A stretch of DNA of 64,000 nucleotides from Bacilli bacterium (GCA_017411405.1 JAFQQE010000010.1:29615-93614), one strand, 5' to 3'. Shown: positions 6,570 through 32,791, numbered from the stretch's first letter. Program-made: numbers and translations. Notes: a model not told the origin generated them from the letters alone.

Positions 6570-7339
6570 TCTTTGTTTTTATTATATTTTTTTATTTTAA
6601 CATTTTGTATATGATAATTTATTCTAAGTAGTAATTTAGTTGGAACTAATCTTGTTAGAAATACTGCTAATTTTATTTTAATAGTTGGTATTATTACAAG
6701 TTTATTTTTAAACATTTTATCTATCGCATAACGTGCTACATATTCACTTGTAGCACTTTTTGTATTAAAACTACCACCTGCAACTTTATTAAAATTAGTT
6801 TCTACTGGTCCTGGACAAAGTACAGATATTTTTACATTAGAATTCATATGTCTTAATTCTTCATATATTGCTAAACTACTTTTTAATACATAATTCTTAG
6901 TAGAATAATATGTAGAAAGTTTAGGTCCGGCCATAAATCCTGCTGAAGATGCTACATTTAAAATATACCCTTTATCTCTTTTTATAAAATCTTTTAAAAA
7001 TAATTTAGTTAATATATGTACTGCAATAATATTTACATTTATCATATTTAATTCTTTTTCTAAATCTGTTTCATAGAAATTACCAAATAAACCAAAACCA
7101 GCATTATTTATTAATATATCTATGTTTTCATCTTTTGTAATATCATATAATTTAAAAACATTTTCTTTTATACTTAAATCTAAATCATATACAGTTGCTT
7201 TACTTTTACATTTTTCTTTTACTTTTTTTAATTCATCTAGATTTCTACCTACTAAAATTAAATCAATACCTTTATCTGATAAGTAATAAGCCATATCTCT
7301 ACCTATTCCACTAGAGGCTCCTGTTATAAGTGCTTTCAT
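6566..7339 (-). CDS. Short-chain dehydrogenase/reductase (SDR) family oxidoreductase.
   Basis: N-terminal TGASSGIGR Rossmann motif, NNAG, and a catalytic YxxxK region (YYSTK). Confidence 0.85.
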   Translation of the reverse strand: MKALITGASSGIGRDMAYYLSDKGIDLILVGRNLDELKKVKEKCKSKATVYDLDLSIKENVFKLYDITKDENIDILINNAGFGLFGNFYETDLEKELNMINVNIIAVHILTKLFLKDFIKRDKGYILNVASSAGFMAGPKLSTYYSTKNYVLKSSLAIYEELRHMNSNVKISVLCPGPVETNFNKVAGGSFNTKSATSEYVARYAIDKMFKNKLVIIPTIKIKLAVFLTRLVPTKLLLRINYHIQNVKIKKYNKNKD

Positions 7340-7947
7340 AAAATCTTCTTCCTTTCTATTATATCTATTGCTAATAATAATATTGCAAGTGCTAATGTAA
7401 ACCCTGCTATTACATCACTAAAATAGTGTACTCCTAAATATATTCTACTTATCATAATTAATAATATAAGTAATGATAATAAACTAATTATTATTATTTT
7501 GTATATTTTATCTAATTTACTCTTATTAACTATATAGATTATAAAACCATATAAAATAACACTAACCATAGTATGTCCACTAGGAAAAGAAAATGATGTT
7601 TCTTCTACTAAATTAATCAATATAGGTCTATCTCTTCTTATTATAATTTTTATTAAATGATTAATAATAGTTTCTATAATTATTAGTATATTTATAATAA
7701 TAGGTATTTTATAATTAAATATACTTAATATAAATAATATTAACATTAAAAGTAATATAAAATTCGTACTAGCTAAAAATGTAATATTTTTCATAATATT
7801 TGTTATATTATCATTTTTTATACTTATTATAATTTTATAAAAATAATCATCAATAAATTCTAATTTATTAAATTTATACAAAATTAATAATACTAAAAAT
7901 AATGCAGTTAATAATATATACCATATTTTTCTTTTCATAATTATCAC
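7336..7947 (-). CDS. PAP2-family phosphatase (membrane phosphatidic acid phosphatase type 2 / undecaprenyl-PP phosphatase-like).
   Basis: PAP2 motifs KxxxxxxRP (IIIRRDRP), PSGH (FPSGHTM) and SRxxxxxHxxxD (SRIYLGVHYFSDV). Confidence 0.8.
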   Translation of the reverse strand: MIIMKRKIWYILLTALFLVLLILYKFNKLEFIDDYFYKIIISIKNDNITNIMKNITFLASTNFILLLMLILFILSIFNYKIPIIINILIIIETIINHLIKIIIRRDRPILINLVEETSFSFPSGHTMVSVILYGFIIYIVNKSKLDKIYKIIIISLLSLLILLIMISRIYLGVHYFSDVIAGFTLALAILLLAIDIIERKKIL

Positions 7948-8000: not shown

Positions 8001-8366
8001 CTAGTATAATTTTTTACATAAAGTTTTTGGCTTTTCAGTTTCTAAATATTGATTAGCTTTTATTAAAAATTCTTGGTTTGATAGAGTATTTATATCTTCA
8101 AAAATCGAATTTTCGATTCTGAAATCATGATATTTTTCTATAATATCGCCATTTTCATCAATTAGCCAGTGGTCGTGTGTTTTTTCTGAATCAGATTTTA
8201 TATATAAAGCATATTCCCCGTTGCCAATTTCTCTTACTGTATAATCATTTTGTCCATAAGTACCGTTCGAATATTCCCTAGTACCATCATAAGGATTTTC
8301 TACAGGTGTTTCATATTGACTTTCTCTAGCTGTATCTATATTTCCATCCCATGGTTCCCCTTTCAT
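8001..8366 (-). CDS. Hypothetical acidic protein.
   Basis: 121-aa ORF with a 4-bp overlap to the upstream gene. No recognisable domain. Confidence 0.35.
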   Translation of the reverse strand: MKGEPWDGNIDTARESQYETPVENPYDGTREYSNGTYGQNDYTVREIGNGEYALYIKSDSEKTHDHWLIDENGDIIEKYHDFRIENSIFEDINTLSNQEFLIKANQYLETEKPKTLCKKLY

Positions 8367-8692
8367 TTATTCTTACCTCCTTTCAAAATTAATTTATTTC
8401 TAATGTATATCCCTTTCAGTTTACCATTTTCTATATGATAACTGTAATCATCTCCATAATTAAATAGTCCATTTTCCATAGATACATAAAACAATTCTAT
8501 GTCAGTATATTTAAGTTCAGGATTAATTGCATTTTGTAATAAAATATATTCTTCTTTTGTCAAATTACTAACATCAAATTCAAAAGAGTGTTCTGCTTTA
8601 TAGTCTATTATTGGTAAAGTTAAAGTAATAACTTTTTGAGTTTTTGCATTTTCTATATCAATATCAACTTCTCCTATTATTCTTTTTTGCAT
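8363..8692 (-). CDS. Hypothetical protein.
   Basis: 109-aa ORF, translationally coupled to the 8001-8366 gene. Confidence 0.35.
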   Translation of the reverse strand: MQKRIIGEVDIDIENAKTQKVITLTLPIIDYKAEHSFEFDVSNLTKEEYILLQNAINPELKYTDIELFYVSMENGLFNYGDDYSYHIENGKLKGIYIRNKLILKGGKNK

Positions 8693-8709
8693 ATTATTAC
8701 ACTTCCTTT

Positions 8710-9459
8710 TTAGTCTTTATATTTTAGATTATTATATTCTTTAATAGAAAGTTTCAAACCTAGTTCTCCTCTTAAATCTTGATCAAATATATGATTTGTT
8801 TTATATATTAAAGATTTCATTTCCCTCAAATAAGGATATTTATTAAAATATAAAATTAATGGATATTTTGAAGTTTCTATATTATAATTTTTTATGATTG
8901 TAAATAAATAATCATTTTTAAAATAATTTTTTATTTTTATATTATCTGTCAATCCAATAAATTTTAAAATTTTTTTTATGGATACTATATTTGCTTGCCT
9001 TTCCATAGGATTTATATTATATAAAATTCTATTATAGTAATCTAAATTTTTATCTTTAATTGCATATTCCCAGTCCTGTACTCTTAAATATATTTTAGTT
9101 TCTAAATCATTATTTAATCTTATTTTCCTTTCTTGATTCACATGTTCTAATTCATGTAACAAAATCTTTAATATTTGTAAATTAACTAATAAAAATTTTA
9201 TTTTAGGTTCATTTATATTTTCAGGTAGATTATTTATAATATATAAAATCATTTTTTGAAAATTAATATTAATTGTTTTCTTATTTATATTATAATTAGC
9301 AAGATTATTATCTTTATAATTAGTAATATTAATACTTTCTACATATTCATTTAAAGAATAATAATCTACTAATGATTTTAATAAATTAATAATTATATTT
9401 TCATCTATTATTTTTTGATTCTTAGAAATAGAATATATATTTTTAAATAAATCTTCCAT
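8710..9459 (-). CDS. Hypothetical protein with an HExxH motif (possible zinc metallopeptidase-like).
   Basis: 249 aa containing LLHELEHVNQE (HExxH). Otherwise low-complexity and N/K/I-rich. Confidence 0.35.
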   Translation of the reverse strand: MEDLFKNIYSISKNQKIIDENIIINLLKSLVDYYSLNEYVESINITNYKDNNLANYNINKKTININFQKMILYIINNLPENINEPKIKFLLVNLQILKILLHELEHVNQERKIRLNNDLETKIYLRVQDWEYAIKDKNLDYYNRILYNINPMERQANIVSIKKILKFIGLTDNIKIKNYFKNDYLFTIIKNYNIETSKYPLILYFNKYPYLREMKSLIYKTNHIFDQDLRGELGLKLSIKEYNNLKYKD

Positions 9460-9625
9460 AATATTTATTCCTTTAGTTTCCTTATATCATAAATAATTTA
9501 TTTTTCACGCTTTTGTATTTTAATTATTAGATTTATTGTTTTAATTATATTTTTTTTCTATATTTTTATATTTCTTTTACTTTTAGACATATTTAAGATA
9601 TTTTTAGACAAAATAAAAGAAATAC

Positions 9626-10228
9626 TTATTTTGTATTTCCTTCTAATTTTAATACTTTTACATCATAATTTTTTTGTTCTTTTTTATATATACAAATCAA
9701 TTTATAAAATAACACTAAACTATCTTTTAAATATTTATCTGGTACTTGAATAATTAAATCATCATTATCTATTGTTATATTTCCAATTATTTTTTTATAG
9801 TATTTACTAATTATATCTATTTCAAATTTATCTTTATGAATTATTTCTTTATAATTCATTGAACTTAAACGAAGTTTAGTATTTTCTATTAAAATATTTG
9901 AATATTTTTCTTTTATAAGATTATTCAAAGTTTTTAAATCTAATAAATCATTAGCTAAATTATTATTTTTTAGACTATTTAATATTTCAGTTATGATTGT
10001 TATTTCTTCTTCTTTTGTAAGTTTTATTCTTTCTTTATTATTGTTTTCTGTAATATTTTTAGTAAAAATTACATTATTATTTTTTATTAGTAATCTTTCT
10101 AATAATTCTCGTTCTCTTGATGTTTTTATTCTTTTTATTTCTGTAATTAATCTATTACAATTAATTATGTATATATAGTCATTTTCATAATAGCGAATAC
10201 CTAAATCTTGTGTATCTACTTTTAACAT
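9626..10228 (-). CDS. Hypothetical protein.
   Basis: 200-aa ORF with no recognisable motif. Confidence 0.35.
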   Translation of the reverse strand: MLKVDTQDLGIRYYENDYIYIINCNRLITEIKRIKTSRERELLERLLIKNNNVIFTKNITENNNKERIKLTKEEEITIITEILNSLKNNNLANDLLDLKTLNNLIKEKYSNILIENTKLRLSSMNYKEIIHKDKFEIDIISKYYKKIIGNITIDNDDLIIQVPDKYLKDSLVLFYKLICIYKKEQKNYDVKVLKLEGNTK

Positions 10229-10260
10229 AATGTCATCCTTTCTTTTAGAAAATAAAAAAA

Positions 10261-10785
10261 CTAATTTTTATTTAGTTTTACTACACTATTTATTTTTCCT
10301 ACTATAAATACTATGCTATCACACTTTTTTATTGCAACCTTTTTAAATATTGCTTTACCGCCAACTGTTAAAGATGATATTATACTTGATACTATTATTG
10401 ATGATAGAGTTATATTTCCTCCTAACAATTTAGAAAGACTTATTGCTACCATTGCTCCCATACTACCACTTAATATTCCGCATATATCTCCTATAACATC
10501 GTTACATATACTAGCTACTTTAACTGAGTTTTTTATAAGACTTAATGATTCTTTAGCACCTTTAATTTTTCTTGATGATTTTGCATGGAATGTTGCTTCA
10601 TTACTTGTTAGAGCAGCAGTTCCAATCATATCAAATATTATTCCGATAACAATAACTAATATTGTAATTACAATCATTACTATTAAATTAGCATTAGTTG
10701 TTATTGCGTTTGATATAAAACTAAATGCAAGTGATAGAAAAAAAGTCATTAAAAAAACTTTATATATCCAGTTATCCTTCTTCAT
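10261..10785 (-). CDS. Small integral membrane protein (about 4 TM helices, Gly/Ser-rich helices) downstream of a long structured leader.
   Basis: 174 aa. Contains ICNDVIGDICGILSGSMGAMVAISL. RBS AAGGGG lies 7 nt upstream of the ATG. Family not recognised. Confidence 0.5.
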   Translation of the reverse strand: MKKDNWIYKVFLMTFFLSLAFSFISNAITTNANLIVMIVITILVIVIGIIFDMIGTAALTSNEATFHAKSSRKIKGAKESLSLIKNSVKVASICNDVIGDICGILSGSMGAMVAISLSKLLGGNITLSSIIVSSIISSLTVGGKAIFKKVAIKKCDSIVFIVGKINSVVKLNKN

Positions 10786-11284
10786 TTACGACACCCCTTA
10801 TATAAAGTTGGAAAATATTGTATGGTATACTATAAATTAATTTTACGGCTTTGGTCGAGTTGAATTTCTCTATTTCCACACCTTCAGTTACCATCTGGCG
10901 ATTTCTCTTTATGGGAAATAACTAAAAGTCACCTATTTAATTACTCGATTACCACTTAGTCCGCACCTCAAACTTTATAGTTTAACACGCTAGAAGTTTT
11001 CCTTGACACAACTAACCTATCATTATTCGCTTTTGCAATTATATTTTCATATATATAAATTCGTATAATCCCATATAATCACTCACGACATGCACATTCT
11101 ATAAGACATTGACGCAATAAAAGGATTTAAATTGTATGCCATTACAACCGTCCTTGAATTTTAAATTATATATTCACCCCAACTTGGGCAGAAGAAGCAA
11201 ATATACAAAGTGTCATCTGTACAATTGGTGGATTTTTAGCCCCACCTTCAAATAGTGTTTATGACTAGCATAATGCACCACACG
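10786..11284 (-). ncRNA. Candidate large structured ncRNA or long 5' leader of about 500 nt. Family unassigned; an OLE-like RNA is a hypothesis.
   Basis: No ORF of 60 codons or more on either strand. GC content is clearly elevated relative to the flanks (e.g. ccacaccttcagttaccatctggcgatttctc). Several local hairpins are visible, including AAGGA-CGG-UUGUA-AUGGCA-UACAA-UUUAAA-UCCUU and GGUGGGGCUAAAAAUCCACC. It lies directly downstream of a perfect sigma-A promoter on the minus strand. Confidence 0.4.
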
Positions 11285-11325
11285 AATAACATTATAGCAA
11301 ATAATTTTGATTTTGTCAAAAATTT
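11285..11325 (-). promoter_or_regulatory. Strong sigma-A-type promoter (TTGACA-17-TATAAT) driving the ncRNA/leader and the membrane protein gene.
   Basis: Minus-strand sequence aaatttTTGACAaaatcaaaattatttgcTATAATgttattcG. The -35 is the reverse complement of 11314-11319 and the -10 is the reverse complement of 11291-11296. Confidence 0.55.
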
Positions 11326-11397
11326 TTCCAGAAATTTAATGCTACATTATATTATATTTAAATATTAAAAAAATAATAATTGTTTTTATTATTATTT

Positions 11398-12090
11398 TTA
11401 ACATCCTTCATTTTCTATACAAACATTAGATTTTAATTTATCAATATGTGTTTGATAAATACTCATTAATTCTTTTTCTTGCTCTTTAGTTAATTCATCA
11501 GTTGCATTAATTTGACTAGGTACACTTACAGCATGTAGTCCAACATATTTGCCATCTTTAATAAATATTACTGTAGGAGCAAGTATTTTCTTTTCATTAG
11601 CTCTTAGAGATTCTTCATTAAATACACTAGTAATATCTTCTCCTATTATTTCGATAATATCTTCATAGATTTTAACAGATTTTGAATCTGTATTGTTTTC
11701 ATATGCTGTTCTTAGTTTTTTAAAATTAAAATAGTATAATTTTTCTATATTATTTTTACTAACTACTTCTAATAAACTTGGTAATACACTTCTACACCAA
11801 TTACATTCATTCCAACCTAAATATATAACATTAGTTCCATTTTTTAATAAATCTACTATTTCATTATCATCTATGTATTCTACATTATTATCACTTTTAA
11901 TATCTAAAGTTTTTAATATATAGTCTTCTGTTAATTCTAAACCGTTAACACTTTCATATTCTTCTTTAAATTTTATTTCATCTTCTGTATATTTTGTTTG
12001 TTTATCTTCTATTGAAACAAAGAACAAAATAGCAACTAATAAAACAATTACAACAATAACACTTATTACAATATTCAATTTGTTTTTCAT
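11398..12090 (-). CDS. Membrane-anchored thioredoxin-fold protein with a CxxC motif (thiol-disulfide oxidoreductase-like).
   Basis: N-terminal TM anchor, then IYLGWNECNWCRS (WCxxC-type active site). Confidence 0.55.
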   Translation of the reverse strand: MKNKLNIVISVIVVIVLLVAILFFVSIEDKQTKYTEDEIKFKEEYESVNGLELTEDYILKTLDIKSDNNVEYIDDNEIVDLLKNGTNVIYLGWNECNWCRSVLPSLLEVVSKNNIEKLYYFNFKKLRTAYENNTDSKSVKIYEDIIEIIGEDITSVFNEESLRANEKKILAPTVIFIKDGKYVGLHAVSVPSQINATDELTKEQEKELMSIYQTHIDKLKSNVCIENEGC

Positions 12091-12249
12091 ACTACTCTAC
12101 TTCCAATCTAATGATAATTATATCAGTATTTATTTCAAATATCAATTATTTGATTTATAAAATGTAAAATAAGTATAAATATAATGTTTTTGTTTTTACT
12201 TTAATATATAGAAATGATATAATTTTTTATATAATAAAAGGAGTTTAGT

Positions 12250-13389
12250 ATGAATACATTAAATAATAAACAAAAAATTTTATTACTTAGTATAATAATA
12301 TGTATATTTAATATATTCGTTTTTACTATATCATTTTATTATTTATTTAGTAATAATAATAAAGATATTATAACTTATAAAGATGAAATCTTTAATATTA
12401 GTTTTAATAAGAAGATATATTATGTTGGTATTAATGAAACTATAGATATTAATATAAATAATCCAGATAATATAAATTATTCTTTAATTACCGACAATAG
12501 TAATTTAATAAGTATTGATGGTAATAAAATAACAGGATTAAAAAGTGGTAAAACCAATTTAGTCATTGTTTTACCTAATAGTAAAGTTATAACTTCTATA
12601 ATCTATATTGTAAAAGGTTTAGTAGCAAGTCCTCAAGAATTTAATTATAATAAACCATATCTATCTTGTAATTATTTTTCTAATGATGAAAACAAACTAA
12701 TTGATAATACTTTAAAAGATAGGATAAATGATGTTGGATACAAAACTCGTGCTGCAGTTATTGAAGCAGCTAGATTCTTAACTTTAAATTTTGATTTTAG
12801 AATACATTATTTTTATGAAAATGGACGTTTAAATAATTTTAGCGGTAAGGAATATGTAGATGGTGAAGGAAGATATTATCATAAGGGGTTATTTTTGAGT
12901 GAATCTAAATTTGATTCTTTAGTTGCTTCTTTATATGGTCCTACTTCATGGGGATGTCCTTTAACTAACATTACTAAAGCACATGGATATGGTTATTATG
13001 TTGGTAAAAAATATCCAAATGGTTTGGATTGTAGCGGATTTGTTTCATGGGCTTTATATAATGCTGGATTTGATGTTAAAGATACTGGAGCTGGCGATTC
13101 TCCACGTAATGATGATTTATATGATTTAGGAGAAAAAAATATAATAACTGATGAACTATTAAACTCTAAAAAAGTTAAAGTTGGAGACTTAATAGCATAT
13201 AATGGTCATATGGCTATTATAGTTGGAATTGATAAAGAACACTATTATGTTTCCGAAACTTTACCTGGATTAAAAGGATTAGTTACTAAAAAATATACTA
13301 AAGAAAAATTAAAGAATACTTTTACTCATATAATGTTAATGGATAGTGTTTATAAAAAAGATGGAAATTTAACTAATATGTGGTATTAA
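12250..13389 (+). CDS. Secreted NlpC/P60-family cell-wall hydrolase with an N-terminal Ig-like (Big_2-type) domain.
   Basis: Signal/TM segment. The C-terminal catalytic region has GLDCSGFVSWALYNAGFDV (Cys nucleophile) and a downstream His (GHMAIIVG). Confidence 0.75.
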   Translation: MNTLNNKQKILLLSIIICIFNIFVFTISFYYLFSNNNKDIITYKDEIFNISFNKKIYYVGINETIDININNPDNINYSLITDNSNLISIDGNKITGLKSGKTNLVIVLPNSKVITSIIYIVKGLVASPQEFNYNKPYLSCNYFSNDENKLIDNTLKDRINDVGYKTRAAVIEAARFLTLNFDFRIHYFYENGRLNNFSGKEYVDGEGRYYHKGLFLSESKFDSLVASLYGPTSWGCPLTNITKAHGYGYYVGKKYPNGLDCSGFVSWALYNAGFDVKDTGAGDSPRNDDLYDLGEKNIITDELLNSKKVKVGDLIAYNGHMAIIVGIDKEHYYVSETLPGLKGLVTKKYTKEKLKNTFTHIMLMDSVYKKDGNLTNMWY

Positions 13390-16079: not shown

Positions 16080-16769
16080 TTAAACTTTCATAGTGTTTTT
16101 TAAACGTTTAATTACTTTCTTTTCTATTCTAGATATATATGATTGACTTATACCTAGCATATTAGCTACTTCTTTTTGTGTATATTCTTCTGTATTATTT
16201 AATCCATATCTTAATTTCATTATATGTTTTTCTCTATCATTTAAGGAATTTAATTCTCGTTCTAATAATACCTTATCTACTTTCGCTTCAAATTCTTTAT
16301 ATACTATATCTTCTTCAGTGCCTAGTATATCTTCCAAGTGTAATTCATTTCCTTCTGCATCATAGTTTAGTGCATCTTCAAAACTTATTTCTGTTTTTCT
16401 TCTTTTATTTTTTCTTAGAAACATGAGTATTTCATTTGCAATACATCTAGAACAATATGTTGCTAATTTTATATTTTTATCCATTTTGTAAGTATTTATA
16501 CCTTTTATTAGTCCAATTGATCCAATGCTTACTAAATCTTCTAAGTCATACCCTGTATTTTCATATTTTTTTGCAAGAAAAACTACTAATCTTATGTTAT
16601 GTTCTATTAGTTTATTTCTAGCTTCTTTATCCCCTTCTTTAGATAAAATTAAATATTTTGTCTCTTCTTCATTAGATAAAGGAGGAGGTAAAATATCTGT
16701 ACTACCTAGAAATAAACAAATATTTTCTTTTTTAAAAAACTTTAATATTAATTCTATAATTTTTTTCAT
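16080..16769 (-). CDS. sigE: Sporulation sigma factor E (pro-sigma-E).
   Basis: 229 aa. Pro-sequence with ILPPPLSNEEE, sigma-70 regions 2 and 4 (HNIRLVVFLAKKY, GISQSYISRIEKK). It immediately follows spoIIGA within the ftsA-ftsZ-spoIIGA-sigE cluster. Confidence 0.8.
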   Translation of the reverse strand: MKKIIELILKFFKKENICLFLGSTDILPPPLSNEEETKYLILSKEGDKEARNKLIEHNIRLVVFLAKKYENTGYDLEDLVSIGSIGLIKGINTYKMDKNIKLATYCSRCIANEILMFLRKNKRRKTEISFEDALNYDAEGNELHLEDILGTEEDIVYKEFEAKVDKVLLERELNSLNDREKHIMKLRYGLNNTEEYTQKEVANMLGISQSYISRIEKKVIKRLKNTMKV

Positions 16770-17572
16770 AAATCAAATATCCTTTCATTTAAAATACAAT
16801 CAGCTTTTAAATTTTCACATATTCCAATTAATACTTTTTCAATCTTTTTATCTTCTATTAAAATATATTCACAAGTTATACATTTTAGTAATCCACTATT
16901 ATTTAAAGAAGAAAATGGTACATATAATACTTTTTTATTTTTAATATTTATATATTTTTTATTAAGTAATATAATTGGTCTTTTTAAGTATGGATCAACT
17001 AATTTATTTCCTGTATCTAGAAATCCTTCTACATTAATTTCTTTATTTTTAAATTTTATTGTTACATAGTATTTTGTATTTATTCTTTTTTTATAATTTA
17101 AGTGTTCTTTAATATAAAATAAGATTATTATTGGACTTATTATTAAAAGTATAACTAAATTAATACTATATCCGTTATTTATGAATATAAAACTATTAAC
17201 TTTATATCCTAAAGAATCATTTATTAAATATAAACTTCCTCCTAATACTATACTTATTATGTATAAATAAAAAAGATTATTAAAAAATGATTTTTTACCA
17301 AAAGAAATTAATACCATAAATATACTAATTATTATTTTTACTAAATTTAAGATAATTGTTGACATTTTAAAGAATAAGAGAATTAAAGAAAGACTACCTA
17401 TAAGTGATCCTAGTAAAATTCTATATTTTTTTGTAGGAAGTTTATTTATAAATTTTACACCAGTCAATATATAGAAATCCATTATAAAGTTTATAAAAAA
17501 AACTAGGTCTATATATACTGTCATAGTATCACCTAGTTTATTATATTTTATATTTTTTAAAAAAATTGTCAA
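16766..17572 (-). CDS. spoIIGA: Sporulation sigma-E-processing aspartic protease SpoIIGA.
   Basis: Membrane N-domain and a C-terminal GFLDTGNKLVDP catalytic motif. The true start is probably the internal Met (MTVYIDL, about 17524), by comparison with the B. subtilis N-terminus MKIYLDV. Confidence 0.8.
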   Translation of the reverse strand: MTIFLKNIKYNKLGDTMTVYIDLVFFINFIMDFYILTGVKFINKLPTKKYRILLGSLIGSLSLILLFFKMSTIILNLVKIIISIFMVLISFGKKSFFNNLFYLYIISIVLGGSLYLINDSLGYKVNSFIFINNGYSINLVILLIISPIIILFYIKEHLNYKKRINTKYYVTIKFKNKEINVEGFLDTGNKLVDPYLKRPIILLNKKYINIKNKKVLYVPFSSLNNSGLLKCITCEYILIEDKKIEKVLIGICENLKADCILNERIFDL

Positions 17573-30142: not shown

Positions 30143-30160
30143 TATTTTATTCTTCCTTTC

Positions 30161-30420
30161 TTTTTTATTTATTTAGTAAATTTTTCTTATTATCACTTCC
30201 TATTAAAAAAAGAGGATAATAAAACTTATCCTCCTTCAACCAAAACATAAATGCACAAATCATTTAAGTTGTAAATATACTAACATTTTGTTAAAACTTA
30301 TTTTTATATCATGTATAAAATAATGATTTTTGCGTTTATATTATTTTTTTTTATTATTTTTAATCAAATAAATTCGTTTTAAACTGATTTTTAGGTGTTT
30401 TAGACAATATAAAAAAATTG
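30161..30420. repeat. Copy 2 of the roughly 270-bp conserved non-coding element.
   Basis: Near-identical to 29041-29350, including the GAGGATAA...TTATCCTC terminator hairpin. Confidence 0.7.
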
Positions 30421-30691
30421 ATAAAACTTACTAAAATTTCCAATATTTCATAAACATATTTTAGAAAAAAATAAAGTGAACTATTTAGAACACTTTTGAA
30501 ATATTTAACATGAGAATTGTCATATAAAAACCTCGATTCTATTTGTCCAAGAAACGGGGTTCATATCATATTGGCTTGCCAATAGGTGTGTTACTAAAAT
30601 GACAATTTTAGTTTTTATAGAAGTTACATATAAATTTATATTAATTATAATTGTATAACATTAAAAGATTTGATATAATTTTTATAGGAAC

Positions 30692-30915
30692 ATTTAATAG
30701 TTGGGTGATTGCCGAATTCTTAATAAGGAAGGAGGCGATAATATGTTTAAGAAAGATTTATTAAACACTCATTAATCATACTTATCTTCCTACTAGTATT
30801 ATTACTATTTATAGTTTTGATATGAAAAGAAAATCACCTAACTCAGCAATGATTTAGGTGATGTCAATATATGGGCAACACTCAACATACGAATATTGAA
30901 TGTTCCTTTTTTATT
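30692..30915 (+). ncRNA. Candidate short transcript with a 10-codon ORF (MFKKDLLNTH) and terminal hairpins.
   Basis: Extended -10 promoter ttTGaTATAAT at about 30680-30690. Strong RBS AAGGAAGGAGG then ATG at 30743. Perfect 9-bp hairpin AUCACCUAA-N12-UUAGGUGAU. Terminal stem AACAU...AUGUU plus CCUUUUUU. Confidence 0.3.
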
Positions 30916-31010
30916 ATATGAAGTTTCCTTCATCTATATACATACTAACATAAAAACGACTTATTTTCAAGTCGTTTTAAATTTTATCTCGAAAAGTTCG
31001 AATAACAATC

Positions 31011-31044
31011 AATCTGGTGCCATTGAAGTAGACGTCTACAACTT
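31011..31044. repeat. att-like junction repeat: tRNA 3'-end-like core (caatctggtgccattga) plus the perfect palindrome GTAGACGTCTAC.
   Basis: Palindrome at 31028-31039. The shared 20-mer gtagacgtctacaactttta also occurs at 31996-32015. The adjacent sequence resembles the 3' end and flank of tRNA-Arg (tcaatggtg). Confidence 0.55.
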
Positions 31045-32534: not shown

Positions 32535-32555
32535 AAATTAACTCCTTTCAGATAG

Positions 32556-32640
32556 TATTTATTATATTATATTTTTTGTATTTAGTTATGACAAAATATT
32601 TAACCACCTAGGCATTTTGATATATATATCAAAATGCTAG
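32556..32640 (-). promoter_or_regulatory. Cassette promoter (TTGTCA-17-TATAAT) preceded by a perfect 22-bp palindrome ATTTTGATATATATATCAAAAT (operator-like).
   Basis: On the minus strand, -35 is the reverse complement of 32589-32594 and -10 is the reverse complement of 32566-32571. The palindrome lies at 32614-32635. A homologous but imperfect segment lies upstream of the 241-aa gene (about 31830-31900). Confidence 0.5.
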
Positions 32641-32714
32641 CTGAAAAAGAAAAATCAATCATTTCGATTGATTTCTATATATCAAAGTTCGAATAGTTCG
32701 AACAGATTTATCAA

Positions 32715-32791
<77 letters not shown>

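Follow-up and report, generated by a model that had tools for sequence, protein, structure and literature searches.

OLE RNAs are among the largest and best-conserved bacterial RNAs of unsolved biochemical function. They have been described as abundant, stable, membrane-localised components of ribonucleoprotein (RNP) particles with protein partners of their own, and their structure has been divided into domain 1 (P3-P9) and domain 2 (P1, P2 and P10-P15) (Lyon & Breaker, PMC12265935). The roughly 12 bp of P3 plus P3.1 are proposed to cross the membrane as a helix, with OapA sites on either side of it, in or near P2 and P4a (PMC12265935). In current models, an OapA-bound OLE dimer spans the membrane. 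Kretsch et al. (PMC12286853) have described bridge B1 as A-A pairs between L4 loops, bridge B2 as contacts among L5, L6 and L7, and bridge B3 as a symmetric L9.3 kissing loop in which GGCC covaries to GAUC or AGCU.

Compact members of the class have also been reported. According to Fernando & Breaker (2024, mSphere; PMC11332333), RNAs of variant 2 "entirely lack P7 and P8"; they are frequent in RF39, an uncultured gut clade with reduced genomes from which OapB and OapC are absent, and a shortened P9 is given in the text for variant 1 only. The authors also list the hallmarks of OapA, namely four transmembrane helices, a DxxxD motif that is absent from CNNM domains and a distant kinship with CNNM proteins, and they name MtCorB (7M1U) as its best structural match. 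Candidatus Coprovivens belongs to GTDB order RF39, family CAG-1000 (PMC8035907).

Here we describe one locus within a 64,000-nt stretch of bacterial DNA, hereafter the window. We are highly confident that this locus is a self-contained ole-oapA unit, composed of a compact OLE RNA (variant 2) and the gene for OapA. The RNA class and variant 2 are both already known, and Rfam annotates the element routinely. The original prediction had proposed a large structured RNA in 10786-11325 and named the OLE/OapA arrangement as its closest analogy. The Rfam match, the features of the protein and the covariation of the RNA all agree with that analogy, and the alternatives offered beside it, a novel large RNA or a long regulatory leader, are not needed. 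A known large noncoding RNA was in this case correctly recognised from raw sequence alone.

The Rfam match and its missing parts

When the entire window was scanned against Rfam, two matches exceeded the gathering score, one to OLE and one to a tRNA. The former occupies the following interval.

10806-11297, minus strand: OLE RNA gene, match to Rfam RF01071 (cmscan, 228.1 bits, model positions 1-616)

The gathering score of the family is 50, and the match (E 4.9e-63) is untruncated, with 492 nt set against a 616-position model. The Rfam search suggested with the original prediction therefore returned OLE over the full model. The RNA does not have the ~600-nt length that goes with P7, P8, a long P9 and P11, and the deficit falls in discrete places. 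Two stretches of 44 and 36 positions within model positions ~198-277, which correspond to P7 and P8, are matched by 7 and 9 nt. The 41 positions of the distal P9 (model ~314-354) are represented by 7 nt only, and the model hairpin at 424-435, which is P11 and lies between P10 and P12, is missing. P7 and P8 are thus wholly absent and the conserved core is kept, as in variant 2. The short length is the published condition of this variant, and membership of the OLE family stands. Compared to the ~600-nt OLE that had been named as the analogy, the RNA is not full-length but a compact variant 2 without P7 and P8.

The RNA was originally noticed by its base composition. GC is 0.329 in 10806-11297 and 0.320 in 10786-11325, compared to 0.232 in the window overall, which bears out the elevation that had been claimed. 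Equally GC-rich segments of 492 nt make up 1.1% of the window, and all of these are coding and lie near 18.2 kb. The interval 10786-11325 contains ORFs of 37-40 aa only. The description of this interval as the only GC-rich, ORF-free stretch was slightly overstated, however: GC is indeed high and no ORF longer than 40 aa lies inside, but the window has nine other gaps of at least 250 nt without ORFs of at least 80 aa, and one of them (32535-32791), which contains the tRNA, has a GC of 0.327. The claim that neither strand carries an ORF likewise holds for the interior, but a 175-aa antisense ORF (10313-10840, plus strand) overlaps the terminal 35 nt.

Related loci and the covarying structure

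We searched the 174-aa protein encoded next to the RNA in one genome per species and kept 80 loci. All of them are from gut metagenome-assembled genomes (MAGs) labelled Bacilli, Tenericutes, Mycoplasma sp. CAG:472, Candidatus Coprovivens and similar. With the window RNA as nhmmer query, 76 of the 80 loci proved to carry an RNA homolog immediately 5' of the protein gene; in 74 of these the homolog is complete (463-593 nt), and in two a contig end truncates it. Among the remaining four loci, two end less than 40 nt from the gene, one (L015) keeps its oapA homolog with the RNA reduced to the last ~55 nt, and one (L069) has an oapA homolog and no OLE within 6 kb. The pairing of OLE with oapA is not absolute, because L015 and L069 lack an intact adjacent OLE.

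The window RNA was aligned with 72 distinct relatives (73 rows; 463-515 nt). About 157 of the 492 positions are invariant in the 73 sequences. Near-invariant blocks amounting to ~25% of positions are expected of OLE RNAs, and the alignment contains such blocks: GGUGCAUUAUGCUAGUCA (with minor variation), CUAAAAAU, GCCCA, AAUGGCAU and UGCAAAAGC, together with UCUAG, GGAC, UGG, GAGAAA and GACCAAAGCCG. RNAalifold predicted 100 pairs, 60 of which have compensatory changes, and the addition of P1 and P3 by covariation brought the structure to 113 pairs in 19 helices. These pairs are 97.4% paired across the 73 sequences, compared to 37-41% in controls with the 3' partners shifted by 1-3 columns, and 67 of the 113 show changes on both sides. 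The covariation score was 0.374 against ~0.07, and none of 500 shuffles reached any of the observed measures. These results show that the RNA is structured and under strong selection. A covariation test in related genomes had been proposed as a check on the prediction, and 67 compensatory pairs across 73 sequences are its outcome.

Folding of the single sequence is less informative. The minimum free energy of the RNA has a z-score of -1.31, and 11 of 100 shuffles fold equally well; at 23% GC, single-sequence folding is not useful. The local stem-loops originally noted in the region are therefore upheld by the 19 helices obtained through covariation, but thermodynamics alone would have been insufficient to establish them.

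The structure has the two-domain layout of OLE and the following parts, beginning with the closing helix.

10820-11283, minus strand: RNA core from the P1 5' strand to the P1 3' strand, 464 nt, predicted
11283-11277 with 10826-10820, minus strand: P1, GUGUGGU/ACCAUAC; in 24 of 73 sequences a U-A pair is swapped for A-U
11265-11272 with 10986-10993, minus strand: P2, UAUGCUAG with CUAGCGUG, 8 bp, 99.8% paired
11251-11263 with 11007-11021, minus strand: P3 and P3.1 (CAUAAA, CUAUU), 6 + 5 bp, 9 of 11 pairs compensatory
11227-11246, minus strand: P4 hairpin with the A-rich loop GCUAAAAAU, stem 100% paired
11166-11208, minus strand: P5/P5.1 long hairpin with loop GCCCA (72 of 73), 11 of 16 pairs compensatory
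11131-11148, minus strand: P6.1 hairpin with loop AAUGGCAU, 5 of 6 pairs compensatory
11089-11130, minus strand: 42-nt linker that replaces J6/7, P7 and P8 (36-54 nt in the clade)
11027-11088, minus strand: P9, with base and internal loops kept and the distal arm cut, 9 of 14 pairs compensatory
10829-10981, minus strand: 3' domain (P12-P15 region), including a P13 hairpin with a G-GNRA-C loop, helices 96-100% paired

Several of these elements vary in ways that preserve pairing. One position of P2, a helix that holds an invariant CUAG palindrome, occurs as GC, AU, CG and UA as well as GU, and one pair of P3 shows four pair types. The P4 loop reads GCUAAAAA in 63 of the 73 sequences and CCUAAAAA in the other 10. 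All 73 have either AUGGCA or ACGGCA in the P6.1 loop, which is complementary to the loop of P5.1, and the P15 loop is GUAA throughout. The stem names in the 3' domain are a mapping made in the present analysis.

The tip of P9 departs most from this pattern of conserved loops. In the window RNA, the tip (11045-11072) is a 28-nt, AU-rich segment with a predicted folding energy of 0 kcal/mol, and it stands where full-length OLE has the P9.1-P9.3 arm, which carries a palindromic kissing loop. We looked for GGCC in the P9 tips and found it in 0 of 73. A bare A-GNRA-U cap forms the tip in 30 of the 73, and most of the others have tips that are short or consist of A and U only. L066 alone among the 73 keeps a GC-stemmed P9 hairpin, with a GAUC loop. 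Judging from the loops present, the L4, L5.1 (GCCCA) and L6.1 (AAUGGCAU) elements of bridge B1 and of the L5/L6 part of bridge B2 are kept, and by the same reasoning bridge B3 and the contribution of L7 to B2 are gone.

Promoter, oapA and rival explanations

The original prediction had placed a perfect TTGACA-17-TATAAT promoter on the minus strand, and this reading was correct.

11314-11319, minus strand: -35 hexamer TTGACA of the ole promoter, a 12/12 consensus promoter that recurs in place in most of the 73 loci
11291-11299, minus strand: extended -10 element TGcTATAAT, in which TG precedes the second hexamer

With its 12/12 match and the upstream TG, this sigma-70 promoter (11319-11291, minus strand) is the only such site in the 3 kb scanned. 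Throughout the clade, the -10 element ends 7-9 nt upstream of the invariant GUGGUGCAUU, and in most of the 73 loci both the -35 hexamer and the extended -10 element stand at a constant distance from GUGGUGCAUU. Placed by promoter geometry, transcription would start at ~11283-11285, 6-8 nt past the -10 element, which coincides with the first nucleotide of P1. The first ~14 nt of the Rfam match overlap the -10 box and are probably untranscribed. A terminator scan of 9400-12400 found none, including between ole and oapA, and the locus has no visible signal that marks the 3' end of the OLE RNA. This arrangement points to a promoter-ole-oapA bicistron whose 5' end would form without need for processing. 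On the other side of the promoter, after the upstream gene, lies an AT-only hairpin (11363-11402; -6.9 kcal/mol, z -2.4) that could be a weak terminator.

Downstream of the RNA, the features are as follows.

10792-10799, minus strand: ribosome-binding site (RBS) of oapA, AAGGGGUG, 20 nt past the end of P1
10261-10785, minus strand: oapA; its 174-aa product is a membrane protein with four long helices (motif, profile and fold tests)
10486-10500, minus strand: codons of D96-V-I-G-D100 (DxxxD)

The interval was originally said to end at the RBS of the 174-aa ORF, as it does, with AAGGGGUG at 10799-10792; P1 and the ATG are 34 nt apart. Database searches with the protein returned 3197 relatives, the best of which is a protein from a Bacilli bacterium MAG with 100% identity. 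Across 35 diverse members of the family, among them the protein encoded beside the near-full-length OLE of locus L078 (see below), D96 and D100 never vary; they form part of the block C-N-D-x-x-G-D-x-x-G-I-x-S-G, which is invariant except that C102 is replaced by S in one of the 35. In a confident AlphaFold2 model built with 56 homologs (pLDDT 84.8, pTM 0.74), the long helices span residues 3-31, 34-60, 87-118 and 125-153; a short helical hairpin occupies 63-85, and a further helix forms the C terminus. The four long helices would represent the membrane-spanning topology. Between the second and third of these, the loop at 67-86 reads HAKSSRKIKGAKESLSLIKN, in which K73, K75, K78 and K85 are nearly invariant, and K144 and K148 are invariant; the face that carries these positive residues is presumably cytoplasmic.

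The modelled fold is CNNM/CorB-like, with MtCorB (7M1U) as the top structural match. Sequence comparisons place the protein at the margin of the CNNM family. Pfam and NCBIfam have no model of this family: searches with the 174-aa protein gave nothing at E <= 0.01, and its score against CNNM PF01595 is 9 bits (E = 1.4), compared to a cutoff of 28.4. PF01595 is the commonest weak Pfam match in the family; 27 of the 35 members show it, the strongest at E 3.4e-9. When the PDB was searched by sequence, both the protein alone and a profile gave only weak matches to CorB (E 0.6-1.3), and neither search found an OapA chain among the PDB structures. We also considered whether the protein is itself a CNNM transporter of the MpfA/CorB type. 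We rejected this assignment: the PF01595 score is below cutoff, and 174 aa leave no room for the cytosolic domains. OapA is related in fold to the CNNM transporters and is not a member of that family. The comparison with OapA that had been suggested thus found the DxxxD motif, the four long helices and the CNNM/CorB-like fold all present, and by motif, profile and modelled fold the 174-aa protein is OapA.

A homolog in a Clostridia MAG (L078) connects this protein to longer OLE RNAs. It has 49% identity to the window protein overall (51% in the best tblastn segment), and its gene lies directly 3' of a near-full-length OLE (333 bits, 593 nt) that keeps P8, a long P9 with a UGGCCA loop and the P11 hairpin. 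We did not take the L078 RNA as a full-length OLE, as by the score classes of PMC11332333 it may be variant 1, with a reduced P7.

In principle, the ~490-nt element could be a leader that controls oapA in cis, as a riboswitch or attenuator of unusual length, rather than an independent RNA. It lies directly upstream of oapA, shares a promoter with it and is separated from it by no terminator, and RNA and oapA are inherited together in 76 of the 80 loci. However, P1 closes the whole fold 20 nt before the RBS, and there is no conserved alternative pairing of the RBS. Moreover, the match is to a gene-type Rfam family of stable membrane RNP RNAs with their own protein partners (PMC12265935), which elsewhere act in trans, and about one-third of positions are invariant while OapA has diverged to 50-60% identity within the clade, a degree of conservation that exceeds the needs of a leader. 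We regard a leader as very improbable. The notion that the element is a protein-coding gene in decay, with its GC left over from former coding, is weaker by far and can practically be dismissed: its GC is similar to that of the coding regions of the genome, but no ORF exceeds 40 aa, the Rfam E value is 5e-63, and substitutions track base-pair covariation rather than codon periodicity.

A decaying, non-functional OLE relic in a reduced genome is also very improbable, and marginally less credible to us than a leader. Such a relic would be at home in a reduced-genome lineage that has, according to PMC11332333, lost OapB and OapC; four substructures are in fact missing (P7, P8, the distal P9 and P11), and L015 demonstrates that OLE can be truncated while oapA survives. 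Yet 73 distinct sequences share this compact architecture, pairing is at 97.4% and double substitutions maintain 67 pairs, the functional loops are invariant, and the consensus promoter is conserved in position. In 30 of 73 sequences, too, a tidy GNRA cap stands in place of the P9 arm, a change that selected minimisation typically produces. The pattern of conservation is one of purifying selection and not of decay, and L015 has the look of real loss. We therefore retain the reading of the locus as a compact OLE RNA with its oapA gene.

Relation to known OLE systems and genomic neighbourhood

The window RNA most resembles OLE variant 2 as portrayed in PMC11332333, sharing with it the lack of P7 and P8, the retention of conserved nucleotides, an adjacent oapA and, probably, a host among uncultured gut Bacillota with reduced genomes. 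Two features of the locus are unstated in the text of that paper: the absence of the distal P9 arm, kissing loop included, and of the hairpin between P10 and P12, and the presence of a positionally conserved consensus promoter belonging to the RNA. The change in P9 may or may not be new for variant 2.

With full-length OLE, as known from Halalkalibacterium halodurans and from Clostridium acetobutylicum (577 nt; cryo-EM dimer), the window RNA has P1-P6, the P9 base, P10 and P12-P15 in common. The A-rich L4, GCCCA in L5.1 and AAUGGCAU in L6.1 are also shared, as is the downstream oapA. In contrast to full-length OLE, it is ~110 nt shorter and is without P7, P8, P9.1-P9.3 and P11, as well as without bridge B3 and the L7 share of B2. 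The setting differs too. The H. halodurans ole gene lies inside a long polycistronic cluster of isoprenoid, DNA-repair and translation genes (PMC12265935), whereas ole in the window has its own promoter, and the host here is probably a gut symbiont and not an extremophile.

This view of the host comes from the closest loci, which are gut MAGs and include two of Ca. Coprovivens (RF39; L059 and L073). The window's 23% GC and gene content fit an RF39 assignment. The locus fits an RF39-type gut bacterium with a reduced genome, an assignment that rests on the named relatives and not on the window's own genome; such a host is not a classical extremophile.

The window protein resembles H. halodurans OapA in the position of its gene just 3' of ole, in its four long predicted helices and DxxxD motif, in the Lys/Arg-rich loop between helices 2 and 3, and in a CNNM-like fold for which MtCorB (7M1U) is the top match; the link between the two goes through the L078 homolog (49% identity). 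It differs from the MpfA/CorB/CorC CNNM Mg2+ transporters (7m1u, 7cfg), to which its identity is 11-23%, in having no CBS or CorC/HlyC cytosolic domains and in being partnered by an RNA instead of regulatory protein domains. Compared to CorB, it has four long helices and not three (a distinction that PMC11332333 draws for OapA), in addition to DxxxD.

By analogy with H. halodurans and Clostridium, OapA dimers would bind the OLE RNA cooperatively, close to P2 and P4a, and keep it at the membrane. The RNA itself may dimerise as it does in those organisms, an analogy to be read with the loss of B3 and L7 here in mind. Since the P9.3 kissing loop (B3), L7, P7 and P8 are lost, a dimer would form through L4 A-A pairs and L5/L6 contacts only, or else the RNA would be a monomer. 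The particle, if it behaves as elsewhere, would aid the cell in coping with excess Mg2+, cold, alcohols and poor carbon sources, and it could regulate cation transport through the CNNM-like OapA. OapA is probably the only dedicated protein partner of RF39-type OLE, because RF39 is reported to be without OapB and OapC. Among 31 proteins of the 64-kb window scanned against Pfam or NCBIfam, none looked like a further OLE partner.

These considerations raise the possibility that RF39-type OLE is a true minimal device, in which a ~465-nt RNA works with OapA alone, has a strong promoter of its own and starts at the first nucleotide of P1. We put this forward tentatively and judge its chances to be a little under even. 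If true, the device would define the smallest functional OLE core and would be the simplest form to reconstitute and to solve structurally. That OLE has fewer partners in RF39 is already hinted at in the literature, and the present work adds two minor points, the dedicated promoter and the loss of B3. The locus represents no new class and is of modest interest as a clean example of a naturally minimised OLE. The 73-sequence comparison shows what evolution keeps (P1-P6, the P9 base, P10, P12-P15, the L4, L5.1 and L6.1 loops and the CUAG palindrome) and what it has discarded (P7, P8, P11 and the P9 arm, including the kissing loop). This can help in the design of minimal constructs and bears on the need for the P9 arch and for bridge B3.

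Among the larger proteins of the 64-kb window, we found no MpfA/CNNM paralog. Four orphan, very AT-rich ORFs lie at 8001-10228, beyond oapA. We considered these ORFs as new OLE partners and rejected them, as homologs are present in 0 of the 80 loci and PAP2 directly follows oapA in the closest relative. A single weak PHROGs match (E 0.0024), to a family without assigned function, and two marginal PADLOC matches (E ~0.006) were the only other results, and neither set is interpretable. In the closest relative (L010), the gene order is a Trx-like gene, OLE, oapA, PAP2 phosphatase, SDR, LOG and an aminoacyl-tRNA synthetase (aaRS), and the window has the same order except for the 2.3-kb insertion between oapA and PAP2 that carries the four ORFs. 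The surroundings are ordinary chromosome, with ftsA, ftsZ, spoIIGA-like, sigE-like, ackA, def, murT, PBP, uvrC and aminoacyl-tRNA synthetase genes.

P13 and the tip of P9 in compact OLE RNAs

We examined two hairpins in A1, an alignment of the window's compact OLE RNA with 72 distinct relatives. The P13 hairpin (window 10921-10941, A1 columns 410-431) carries a G-GNRA-C loop, and all six of its six base pairs covary. This loop is the published binding site of the partner protein OapB, and RF39 genomes are reported to lack OapB (PMC11332333). Because the hairpin is kept even though RF39 reportedly has no OapB, its conservation suggests that the G-GNRA-C loop serves some further function besides binding OapB. 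The P13 loop is deleted in three related loci (L019, L022 and L035).

Among the 73 compact OLEs, that of L066 (5468-5982) alone retains a distal P9 hairpin with a GC stem. Its P9-tip loop carries the palindrome GAUC, one of the sequences reported to covary with GGCC in kissing loop L9.3 (PMC12286853). The L066 P9 tip may represent an intermediate between full and minimal P9.

oapA homologs without an intact adjacent OLE

At two related loci, the oapA homolog does not adjoin an intact OLE. In L015 (1-490), the last ~55 nt of OLE (ACUCGACCAAAGCCGUAAAAUUGAUUUGUAAUAUACCAUACAA) remain 5' of an intact oapA homolog with 62% identity, and the remainder of the RNA has been exchanged for unrelated sequence. 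Either OLE was naturally truncated at this locus or the assembly is chimeric here. The oapA homolog at L069:5300-6513 has 58% identity and an intact DxxxD motif, and nhmmer and Rfam searches of the 6 kb flanking it on each side detected no OLE. The OLE of L069 may lie elsewhere in that genome, or it may have been lost.

Gene neighbourhood and possible insulation of ole

A PAP2-family lipid phosphatase is encoded at window 7336-7947. PAP2-family genes lie 3' of oapA in 14 related loci, including L003, L010 and L013, and an SDR gene occupies this side of oapA in 21. This conserved PAP2/SDR neighbourhood differs from the isoprenoid and DNA-repair cluster that has been reported around ole in other Bacillota. 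In the window, oapA and the PAP2 gene are separated by four AT-rich orphan ORFs (~12-18% GC).

Orphan ORFs between oapA and the PAP2 gene
9626-10228, minus strand, 200 aa
8710-9459, minus strand, 249 aa
8363-8692, minus strand, 109 aa
8001-8366, minus strand, 121 aa

None of the 80 related loci contains homologs of these ORFs, and in L010, the closest relative, PAP2 directly follows oapA. Judged from this comparison of sequences, window 8001-10228 therefore looks like a 2.3-kb insertion. Pfam and NCBIfam gave no match for any of the four, and PHROGs and PADLOC returned only marginal, uninterpretable matches (E 0.002-0.007). An HExxH-like motif, HELEH, occurs in the 249-aa protein.

On the other side of ole, a 16-bp hairpin of almost exclusively A-U pairs, with a U-run (11363-11402, minus strand; -6.9 kcal/mol, z -2.4), lies directly 3' of the stop codon of a thioredoxin-like gene. 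This hairpin is a possible intrinsic terminator of AT-rich type and may serve to insulate the ole promoter. Our terminator scan requires G-C pairs and would overlook sites of this kind genome-wide.

Other features of the window

The 902 nt at 30143-31044 contain no ORF of at least 80 aa, have average GC (0.232) and match nothing in Rfam, even at E <= 0.1. The window's sole tRNA, which is also its sole Rfam match besides OLE, is tRNA-Arg (anticodon TCT; 32715-32791, minus strand).

Directly after ftsA-ftsZ are spoIIGA-like and sigE-like genes (16080-17572, minus strand). The former matches TIGR02854 under the cutoff (E 1e-34), and the sigma factor, at 321 bits, falls short of its cutoff of 339. 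A correlation of OLE with sporulation genes has been reported, and a sporulation sigma-E module in this reduced gut genome fits that correlation.
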